Source: a virus (taxonomy: Duplodnaviria; Heunggongvirae; Uroviricota; Caudoviricetes). From it: DNA of 17,956 nucleotides. Location of the stretch: the IMG/VR virus record IMGVR_UViG_2734482540_000003; one strand, 5' to 3'. The position numbers and the translations under genes were made by a program. Of the stretch, positions 12,383 to 17,699 are shown piece by piece; within the stretch, counting starts at the first letter, position 1; each line of letters starts with the position of its first letter. Under the pieces are notes generated by a model. The model was given only the letters and a program-made list of their open reading frames with translations, had not been told where the DNA came from and searched no databases.

Positions 12383-16063
<3,681 letters not shown>

Positions 16064-16089
<26 letters not shown>

Positions 16090-16609
16090 TCAGCAACCCC
16101 GGTATCAGTTCATCCAGCGCGGCTGCTTTGTTCATGGCTTTGATGATATCCCGTTTCAGGAAATCAACATGTCGGTTTTCCAGTTCCGGAAAACGCCGCT
16201 GCACCGACAGGGGGATCCCGTCGAGAATACTGGCAATTTCACCTGCGATCCGCGACAGCACGAAAGTACAGAATGCGGTTTCCACCACTTCAGCGGAGTC
16301 TCTGGCATTTTTCAGCTCCTGTGCGTCGGCCTGCGCACGCGTAAGTCGATGGCGTTCGTACTCAATAGTCCCTGGCTGGAGATCTGTCTCGCTGGCCTGC
16401 CGCAGTTCTTCAACTTCCCGGCGCAGCTTTTCGTTCTCAATTTCAGCATCCCTTTCGGCATACCATCTTATAACGGCGGCAGAGTCATAAAGCACCTCAT
16501 TACCCTTGCCACCGCCTCGCAGAACGGGCATTCCCTGTTCCTGCCAGTTCTGAATGGTACGGATACTCGCACCGAAAATGTCAGCCAGCTGCTTTTTGTT
16601 GACTTCCAT
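16064..16609 (-). CDS. nu1: Terminase small subunit Nu1
   Basis: 181-aa ORF MEVNKKQLADIFGASIRTIQNWQEQGMPVLRGGGKGNEVLYDSAAVIRWYAERDAEIENEKLRREVEELRQ... matches lambda gpNu1. ATG at 16607-16609, directly downstream of the cosB-like repeats. Confidence 0.95.
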
Positions 16610-16629
16610 TGTTCATTCCACGGACAAAA

Positions 16630-16750
16630 ACAGAGAAAGGAAACGACAGAGGCCAAAAAGCCCGTTTTCAGCACCTGTCGTTTCCTTTCTTTTCAGGGGG
16701 TGTTTTAAATAAAAACATTAGGTTACGGCGAAGAAGAACGGAAACGCCTT
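16630..16750. promoter_or_regulatory. cosB-like terminase-binding region (R1, R2, R3 repeats flanking an AT-rich IHF-site-like segment)
   Basis: Seen directly: agagaaaggaaacgacag (about 16633-16650) and its near-perfect inverted copy ctgtcgtttcctttct (about 16676-16691), plus a third related copy gaagaagaacggaaacg (about 16729-16745), with an AT-rich tract (ttttaaataaaaacatta) between. This layout matches the R1-R2-I1-R3 organisation of lambda cosB just upstream of Nu1. Confidence 0.65.
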
Positions 16751-16780
16751 AAACCGGAAAATTGTCATAAATAGCGAAAA

Positions 16781-16805
16781 CCCGCGCGCCTTCCGCCCCG
16801 TAACC
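16781..16805. promoter_or_regulatory. cosN-like region (terminase nicking site) with a non-canonical core
   Basis: Flanking sequence (gcgaaaacccgcg ... cgtaacctgtcgg) is what surrounds lambda cosN, but the 12 nt between read CGCCTTCCGCCC rather than the reverse complement of the lambda cohesive end (AGGTCGCCGCCC). Position relative to cosB and Nu1 is as expected. Confidence 0.5.
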
Positions 16806-16834
16806 TGTCGGATCGCCGGAAAGGACCCGCAAAA

Positions 16835-16849
16835 TGATAATAATTATCA
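16835..16849. promoter_or_regulatory. Perfect 7-1-7 inverted repeat TGATAATAATTATCA (Fur-box-like), in the region where cosQ maps
   Basis: Read directly from the sequence; matches the TGATAATnATTATCA Fur-box consensus. Lies about 40 nt from the cosN-like core and about 150 nt upstream of the YlcI-like ORF. Confidence 0.4.
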
Positions 16850-16997
16850 TCTACATGTCACAACGTGCATCTACGCCATCAAACCACGTCAAATAATCAA
16901 TTATGACGCAGGTATCGTATTAATTGATCTGCATCAACTTAACGTAAAAACAACTTCAGACAATACAAATCAGCGACACTGAATACAGGGCAACCTC

Positions 16998-17231
16998 ATG
17001 TCAACGAAGAACAGAACCCGCAGAACAACAACCCGCAACATCCGCTTTCCTAACCAAATGATTGAACAAATTAACATCGCTCTTGTTCAAAAAGGGTCCG
17101 GGAATTTCTCAGCCTGGGTCATTGAAGCCTGCCGCCGGAGACTGTGCTCAGAAAAAAGAGTTTCGCCTGAAGCAAACAAAGAAAAGAGTGACATTACTGA
17201 ATTGCTCAGAAAACAGGTTAGACCAGATTGA
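16998..17231 (+). CDS. Small basic protein, YlcI/DUF3950-like (homolog of the unnamed small ORF next to cos in lambda); function unknown
   Basis: 77-aa ORF MSTKNRTRRTTTRNIRFPNQMIEQINIALVQKGSGNFSAWVIEACRRRL... The N-terminal 50 or so residues match the small lambda right-end ORF and the DLP12 YlcI family as I recall them; the C-terminal tail differs. Basic N-terminus and a ribbon-helix-helix-like core suggest nucleic-acid binding. Weak Shine-Dalgarno. Confidence 0.6.
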   Translation: MSTKNRTRRTTTRNIRFPNQMIEQINIALVQKGSGNFSAWVIEACRRRLCSEKRVSPEANKEKSDITELLRKQVRPD

Positions 17232-17288
17232 AGCAATTTAGATAATCGTGCAGACTACGCCCCCTCATATCACATGGAAGGTACTACA

Positions 17289-17699
17289 ATGGCTCAGGTT
17301 GCCATTTTTAAACAAATATTCGATAAAGTGCGAAATAATTTAAACTATCACTGGTTTTATTCTGAACTAAAACGTCACAATGTCTCACATTACATTTACT
17401 ATTTAGCCACAGAGAATATTCATCTTGTTCTTGAAAACGATAATACGGTTTTAATAAAAGGACAGGGTAAGGTTGTAAATGTAAGATTTTCAAAAAATAA
17501 ATGCCTTATAGAAGCCACCTTAAAAGGATTCAAATCAGGAGAGTTATCATTTTACGAATACAGGAAAAATCTTGCTACAGCAGGGGTTTTCAGATGGATT
17601 ACAAATATCCACGAAAACAAAAGGTATTACTATACCTTTGATAATTCATTACTCTTTACTGAGAACATACAGAACACTACACAAATATTTCCGCACTAA
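17289..17699 (+). CDS. DUF1398-family protein, YbcV-like (homolog of the lambda right-end ORF lambdap78); function unknown
   Basis: Track ORF 17274..17699. The likely start is the second ATG at 17289 ([67 protein letters not shown]...[35 protein letters not shown]), preceded by GGAAGG at a 7-nt spacing. AT-rich codon usage unlike the structural genes. Resembles YbcV/lambdap78 at roughly 75-80% identity by recollection. Confidence 0.75.

Follow-up and report, generated by a model that had tools for sequence, protein, structure and literature searches.

The promoter of stx1 is regulated by Fur, and its operator matches the Fur consensus and overlaps a -10-like hexamer. In E. coli K-12, Fur sites were described by Chen et al. 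2007 (PMC2189734) at nohB, which with 25.3 bits at coordinate 579824 forms the third-strongest predicted Fur cluster in the genome, and at nohA, which scores 22.3 bits at 1634624 and is accompanied by a second site of 12.6 bits at 1634630, 6 bp off. A nohA oligonucleotide, whose 15-mer differs from the one studied here at the centre base only, is shifted by 150 nM purified Fur in a gel shift assay (PMC2189734), a nohA fragment had previously been recovered by the in vivo Fur-site selection of Vassinova and Kozyrev 2000 (as given in PMC2189734), and nohB is named among the Fur targets in reviews. Baichoo and Helmann took the 7-1-7 unit TGATAATnATTATCA as the minimum that Fur recognises (discussed in PMC2189734), and Chen et al. 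argue that the minimal unit in E. coli is 9-1-9 (PMC2189734). Furthermore, Gao et al. 2023 (PMC10164565) reported a Fur ChIP-exo peak, P53, at 1424699-1424711 of strain CFT073 under iron-replete conditions. On the phage side, work from the Feiss laboratory presents cosQ as a site of 7 bp with high conservation (PMC4669245). As a Fur site, the box analysed in the present study is textbook material, being the nohA/nohB box known from Fur-titration-type selections and the gel shift; what has seemingly gone undiscussed is its fixed place beside cosQ in lambda, 21, phi80, N15, HK225 and many uncultured relatives. Among the papers open to our search, none names both 'cosQ' and 'Fur'.

The window, that is the whole stretch of 17,956 nucleotides analysed here, derives from a lambda-type phage or prophage whose morphogenesis genes lie on the minus strand in the order Nu1-gpA-portal-head-tail. 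Its cos region and the end of its right arm share 94-98% identity with lambda-like coliphages and occur in 4427 of 5426 complete E. coli genomes. Read on the minus strand, as in the orientation of lambda, the locus runs from the YbcV-like and YlcI-like genes, which are transcribed away from cos, through the FNR box and GTGACA-ATGTAGA-TGATAATTATTATCA-TTTTGC-GGGTCCT (the last element being cosQ), to 23 nt of sequence, the cohesive end GGGCGGAAGGCG, cosB and Nu1. The features are as follows.

14164-16089, minus strand: terminase large subunit gpA, 641 aa (ORF list).
16064-16609, minus strand: terminase small subunit Nu1 (Pfam Phage_Nu1, E = 2e-101).
16610-16786, minus strand: cosB/I2 region, from cosN to the Nu1 start codon (window 16600-17160 is 94.5% identical to lambda).
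16787-16798, minus strand: cosN cohesive end GGGCGGAAGGCG, 12 nt (direct reading and alignment with lambda-type cos).
16822-16828, minus strand: cosQ, GGGTCCT, the packaging-termination signal (aligned with lambda 48473-48479).
16833-16851, no strand: putative 9-1-9 single-dimer Fur site of 19 bp enclosing the 15-mer; the minus strand reads GATGATAAT-T-ATTATCATT.
16834-16861, minus strand: sigma-70 promoter-like element directed toward cos and Nu1, with -35 GTGACA (16861-16856), a 16-nt spacer and -10 TATCAT (16839-16834).
16835-16849, no strand: Fur-type palindrome TGATAATAATTATCA, or TGATAAT-A-ATTATCA, 7-1-7 (direct reading).
16850-16855, minus strand: flank distal to cosQ, with T(-6), G(-5), A(-3) and A/G(-2) of a putative second Fur hexamer at a 6-bp shift (logo of 38 families).
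16924-16937, no strand: perfect FNR box TTGAT-CTGC-ATCAA; the YlcI-like ORF starts about 60 nt further on (direct reading).
16998-17231, plus strand: YlcI/YnfO-like ORF, DUF3950 (Pfam E = 2e-20).
17274-17699, plus strand: YbcV/YdfO-like ORF, DUF1398 (Pfam E = 3e-43).

An earlier annotation of this DNA, made from the letters and their open reading frames and referred to below as the sequence-only reading, had named the two plus-strand ORFs YlcI-like and YbcV-like, and the Pfam assignments to DUF3950 (YlcI/YnfO) and DUF1398 (YbcV/YdfO), together with that of Nu1, bear these identities out. The cohesive end of the window, compared with lambda GGGCGGCGACCT, differs at all of bp 7-12, a variation that is tolerated (PMC4669245); the same variant was found again in several IMG/VR loci beside an otherwise lambda-like cosQ and terminase. 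A 26-nt inverted repeat occurs within the cosB/I2 region (16634-16690). An Rfam scan of 16550-17350 returned sub-threshold matches to miRNA models only, on the inverted repeat of cosB, and thus gives no RNA element in that interval.

The analysis of the palindrome confirms its description as a perfect 7-1-7 inverted repeat, the arms TGATAAT and ATTATCA being exact reverse complements around a central A. The cohesive end at 16787-16798 places the start of the virion right end at 16799, so that the palindrome begins 36 nt from the cos nick; it lies 6 nt from cosQ and 149 nt from the start of the YlcI-like ORF, in agreement with the distances of about 40 nt to cosN and about 150 nt to the plus-strand ORFs that had been given before. 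The near-identical lambda palindrome, for which a centre G instead of A had been given, is found at 48452-48466 of NC_001416, which reads TGATAATCATTATCA; its central C on the l strand corresponds to G in the orientation of the window plus strand. In the window the palindrome is the sole match at up to two mismatches, with both strands registering the same site, and the chance expectation at that threshold is 0.01 matches per window (200 dinucleotide-preserving shuffles). It matches all 14 specified positions of the 7-1-7 Fur consensus, and thereby the unit TGATAATnATTATCA perfectly, and 17 of the 18 specified positions of AATGATAAT-N-ATTATCATT, a consensus that we derived ourselves from the classic 19-bp box (direct reading). 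The reading of the palindrome as an IHF site was dropped, as by inspection the consensus WATCAR-N4-TTR has no match in it on either strand.

The counterparts in K-12 MG1655 connect the window to the published Fur sites. In prophage DLP12 the identical 15-mer stands between ylcI and nohD (formerly nohB), and in Qin the lambda version TGATAATGATTATCA, which differs from the window 15-mer at the centre only, stands between nohA and ynfO. The coordinates of Chen et al., transferred from U00096.2 to U00096.3, match the central base of each palindrome, with no deviation at nohA and to within 1 bp at nohB. The weight-matrix scores that we use are those published by Chen et al. for the K-12 copies (24-site model), and on this matrix the DLP12 site identical to that of the window reaches 25.3 bits and the Qin version 22.3 bits. 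In CFT073, inspection of the DNA under peak P53 places it on TGATAATTATTCTCG in a phage-21-type prophage, whose GGGTCCT is 5 nt away. The Fur-box label is thus strongly supported, the DLP12 15-mer and the lambda/Qin variant being published Fur sites and the 21-type variant carrying a ChIP-exo peak. Judged by its letters and its place, the window palindrome and the nohB/nohA Fur box of DLP12 and Qin are one element, already known as a Fur site, and the window copy very probably binds Fur.

Two of the top-scoring predicted K-12 sites (25.3 and 22.3 bits; NC_000913.3 580601 and 1636600; centres at 2602 of locus L001 and 3101 of locus L002) are missing from the MG1655 ChIP-exo data, none of whose 137 Fur peaks lies at the DLP12 or the Qin site. 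Multi-mapping reads were ruled out as the cause: around the box, DLP12 and Qin differ at 10 of 135 positions and the identical runs adjoining it are 14 nt long or shorter, so that the copies are distinct enough nearby for multi-mapping not to explain the missing peaks. Chromosomal occlusion and the peak-calling threshold are possibilities.

Cos loci were gathered independently of the box, from loci of Nu1 relatives and from an IMG/VR scan that used the cosQ...cosN pattern only. The 222 loci anchored in this way group by upstream flank into 58 families that are unrelated to one another. The box, defined by at most 3 mismatches to the 7-1-7 unit, is present in 38 of the 58 flank families with its end 3-7 nt, mostly 5 nt, from cosQ, and lambda, 21, phi80, N15 and HK225 all bear it. 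In control zones further upstream (ten per family) even 4 mismatches are reached in only 4 of 580. The mismatch distribution across the families is bimodal, with values of 0-4 or 7-11, and 19 of the 58 families hold nothing box-like (at least 7 mismatches). In the logo of the 38 families the arms T-G-A-T-A-A-T and A-T-T-A-T-C-(A/G) carry 1.2-2.0 bits, with two positions at 0.98 and 0.75, the centre is free (C or T), and T, G, A and A at -6, -5, -3 and -2 carry 0.7-1.2 bits, after which the information drops to noise further upstream, where homology among the families stops. By their spacing, these last four positions correspond to the 6-bp-shifted second Fur site predicted by Chen et al. at nohA. 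Within the lambda family (36 distinct sequences) variation is seen at one of the 14 arm positions, at 3 of the 6 in the spacer and at 13 of the 60 in the left flank, as well as at the centre. The neighbours upstream of the box change between contexts, both in sequence and in the orientation of the nearest ORF. On this comparison the box is a component of the cos-proximal module in lambda-type phages, where it flanks cosQ on the side opposite to cosN, and the selection that acts on it has the pattern of Fur recognition. Its recurrence 3-7 nt from cosQ in 38 of 58 contexts is new here. At the place of the Fur box, 22-25 nt left of cosQ, the box-less families L168, L195, L049, L073 and L235 carry another motif, approximately GAAnnAnACCnGAAnG (for example GCGAATAAACCAGAACGC and ACGAAGTAGACCAGAACGGC), which may reflect either common descent or an alternative protein site.

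These conservation statistics already contradict the view that the palindrome arose by chance as AT-rich sequence, or is carried along with cos as a neutral passenger without function, a view with which the lack of any known phenotype, the missing K-12 ChIP-exo peak and the unchanged expression in MG1655 (see below) would agree. A match is not expected by chance in the window even at two mismatches, the arms vary as little as cosQ does, in contrast to the spacer that separates them from it, the fixed place recurs beside 38 unrelated flanks against 4 of 580 control positions, and the variants retain the Fur-critical bases, which makes this explanation very improbable. We give hardly more than nominal credence to the proposal, one of two put forward in the sequence-only reading, that the palindrome is a part of the termination signal cosQ, in which case terminase would recognise it. 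The box does lie only 3-7 nt from cosQ, and the two are passed on together in lambda, 21, phi80, N15 and HK225; the 55-bp 'cosQ aka R4 region' of the phi80 GenBank record takes it in. However, cosQ has 7 bp both in the description of PMC4669245 and in the annotation of phage 434, and the palindrome of the window stands outside GGGTCCT (16822-16828), starting 6 nt beyond it, as the lambda box (48452-48466) stands 6 nt to the left of lambda cosQ (48473-48479); the 7-bp extent is taken from the later Feiss papers and the GenBank annotation. The spacing between box and cosQ is variable, and conservation falls exactly on the positions of the Fur consensus, leaving the centre free. Furthermore, cosQ occurs in every cos site examined, whereas the box is absent from about a third of the contexts (19 of the 58 families), and several of the box-less cos sites adjoin Nu1 and full-length gpA that are 98-99% identical to those of the window. 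One box-less flank occurs in the isolated phages 4A7, Lambda_4C10, 1W, 3W and IdasGreatGrand; a second one, searched against isolated phages, gave no match. Both cos sites of the island EcCICFT073 are without a Fur box (locus L282 7529 = NC_004431 1387528, plus strand; L282 8339 = 1388338, minus strand), yet this island is packaged by lambda and phi80, and each cloned cos permits plasmid transfer by these phages, less efficiently than the phages' own cos. Box and cosQ are thus separate elements, both in position and in function, and DNA packaging by terminase can proceed without the box.

Some observations on these records stand by themselves. In the phi80 record (L279 576-630) the box follows directly after orf66, the homologue of gene 59, inside the 55-bp feature, and in N15 (L280 581-595) a Fur-like box shares bases with the stop codon of gene 59, which runs in the same direction; set against the 7 bp given elsewhere, the phi80 feature indicates that database annotations of cosQ are inconsistent in extent. 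At cos1 of EcCICFT073 a rho-independent terminator, GGCCGGAGAAATCCGGCTTTTTTT, abuts cosQ, and this flank is shared with the IMG/VR loci L165, L167 and L219. The island also encodes a DUF3950 protein of the YlcI/YnfO family (L282 474-653; NC_004431 1380473-1380652), which indicates that the family travels with lambda-type phages and their satellites.

The other proposal of the sequence-only reading made the box an iron-responsive operator of the plus-strand YlcI-like and YbcV-like genes in the lysogen, for which its place 149 nt upstream of the YlcI-like ORF speaks. The fur deletion data do not carry this: in iron-replete RNA-seq of MG1655, deletion against wild type (PMC10164565), the log2 changes are -0.14 for nohD, -0.29 for nohA/nohQ and -0.05 for ydfO, and ybcV is essentially unexpressed, compared with +6 log2 for entC, while in the W3110 fur deletion (PMC10164565) ylcI, ybcV, ynfO, ydfO and nohD go down by 2-5 log2 along with hyb and appY. 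The K-12 homologues of the downstream ORFs are therefore unchanged or lower, and in neither strain derepressed. A perfect FNR box, TTGAT-CTGC-ATCAA, which in K-12 is an FNR target by ChIP-chip and EMSA at nohA/ydfO and nohB, separates the Fur box, about 90 nt further upstream, from the ORF; if the putative promoter is at the FNR box, the Fur box would lie about 130 nt upstream of the start. Moreover, the box is kept in phi80, N15, HK225, 21 and dozens of contexts that lack these genes, and a co-directional ORF often ends right at it. Taken together, the deletion data, the FNR box and the presence of the box in phages without the genes make the operator an unlikely explanation, and we rate it as decidedly so. 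The FNR box and the fall in W3110 together with the anaerobic genes hyb and appY suggest that oxygen, rather than iron, may control these cargo genes. Fur control of prophage genes in general has one supporting case in CFT073, where the fur deletion raises genes to the left and right of the equivalent box 2.5- to 8-fold, and is not supported for the YlcI/YbcV genes; the leftward genes C_RS07340 and C_RS26755, up 5- to 8-fold, suggest that Fur control of cargo divergent from cos may occur in one context. A further reading, in which Fur would serve cos as a non-essential host accessory factor, as IHF does at I1 in cosB, is in our opinion unlikely. The bound protein, standing before cosQ, would slow the motor and so aid recognition of cosQ and cosN, or else would give cos an iron-sensitive function. 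The box indeed always comes just ahead of cosQ on the path of the incoming motor, cos is the common neighbour in all contexts, and there is selection for Fur binding without a conserved promoter; termination would be rate-sensitive, as slower packaging reportedly suppresses cosQ mutations in the genetics of the Feiss laboratory. Against it, the box is dispensable, box-less phage and PICI cos sites being functional, the paper on the Keio screen for lambda host factors does not name fur in its main text, the CFT073 derepression is left unexplained, and none of the papers searched joins Fur with cosQ.

Two further results concern transcription near the box. A leftward promoter with its -10 in the box was rejected on direct reading, as its -35 would land inside cosQ, which also speaks against the operator of the YlcI/YbcV-like genes. 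In the phage 434 record, two matches to the CII-binding sequence TTGYN6TTGY (L156 152-165 and 227-240) lie on the strand opposite to the DUF3950 gene, one upstream of it and one inside.

We thus favour the explanation that the palindrome is a high-affinity Fe2+-Fur site of the lambda-type cos module with a local silencing or insulating effect, which as a whole we consider rather probable; the part of it that assigns Fur-dependent transcriptional silencing to the boundary between cos and terminase is proposed tentatively. In this mechanism an Fe2+-Fur dimer would occupy the 19-bp 9-1-9 site, and a second, weaker dimer would bind 6 bp further from cosQ. In the lysogen, the bound Fur would silence or insulate transcription between the variable accessory-gene region and cos with the terminase genes. 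The box covers the spacer and the -10 of the promoter-like element directed across cos into Nu1 and A, and this element would be shut as long as iron-loaded Fur is present. In the window the element GTGACA/TATCAT, which scores 10/12 in the consensus scan, has its spacer and -10 covered by the Fur box. The CFT073 fur deletion is consistent with silencing on both sides, the log2 changes being +1.34 for terL and +2.13 for C_RS07370, and +2.33 for C_RS07340 and +2.95 for C_RS26755 leftward, all counted as Fur regulon. EcCICFT073, which has no terminase genes after its cos, carries at the place of the box a terminator (cos1) or nothing (cos2), as silencing of terminase would suggest. Several results argue against silencing. 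The fur deletion does not derepress nohD, nohA/nohQ, ydfO or ybcV of K-12 in MG1655, and a nohA/B::lacZ fusion has low activity. None of the 137 MG1655 ChIP-exo peaks falls at the DLP12 or Qin sites, and about a third of the lambda-type cos contexts are without the box. The derepression in CFT073 could be indirect through prophage induction, as fur mutants can induce prophages via SOS, reported for Yersinia ruckeri. The hypothesis of a conserved promoter was dropped: across the 38 box-bearing families only 6 reach 4 of 6 matches to the -35, the same rate as at control positions, the GTGACA hexamer being specific to the lambda family and not conserved in the others.

The box is under selection for Fur recognition and yet is dispensable to terminase. 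If Fur acts at the box, the much-studied cos holds an overlooked host-factor site that ties iron status to terminase expression or to packaging. That the Fur site is built into the lambda-type cos, either as an iron-gated guard on terminase in the lysogen or as an accessory or speed bump of packaging termination, is doubtful; if true, phage DNA maturation or the safety of the prophage would be coupled to the iron of the host. If the box does nothing measurable, a top-ranked motif with proven in vitro binding need not imply regulation.

Compared with the known systems, the window is closest to the boxes of DLP12 nohB/nohD and Qin nohA, which stand at the same place, between the Nu1 homologue and ylcI or ynfO and 6 nt from GGGTCCT. 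The K-12 copies, however, are parts of decayed prophages with truncated head genes, whereas in the window the Nu1-A-portal-head-tail block is intact and the cohesive end is of a variant type. Lambda (48452-48466), 434, 21, phi80, N15 and HK225 present the same 7-1-7 repeat 5-6 nt left of cosQ; these lambda-type boxes differ from that of the window at the centre base and at 0-3 arm positions, and their upstream neighbours are unrelated (N15 gene 59, phi80 orf66). Like the classic Fur promoters of fepA-fes, entC, fhuA and ryhB, the window shows a Fur-consensus operator over a -10-like hexamer, but the classic operators overlap demonstrable promoters and are derepressed 30- to 1000-fold when fur is deleted, compared with no derepression of the K-12 homologues and 2.5- to 8-fold in CFT073. 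The adjoining cosQ is co-inherited with the box and similarly invariant, but it is a distinct 7-bp sequence. Finally, the IHF site I1 in cosB (PMC4669245) provides a precedent for a host-protein site embedded in cos; IHF at I1 has a demonstrated role in the initiation of packaging, whereas the Fur box is a candidate for such a host-factor site.
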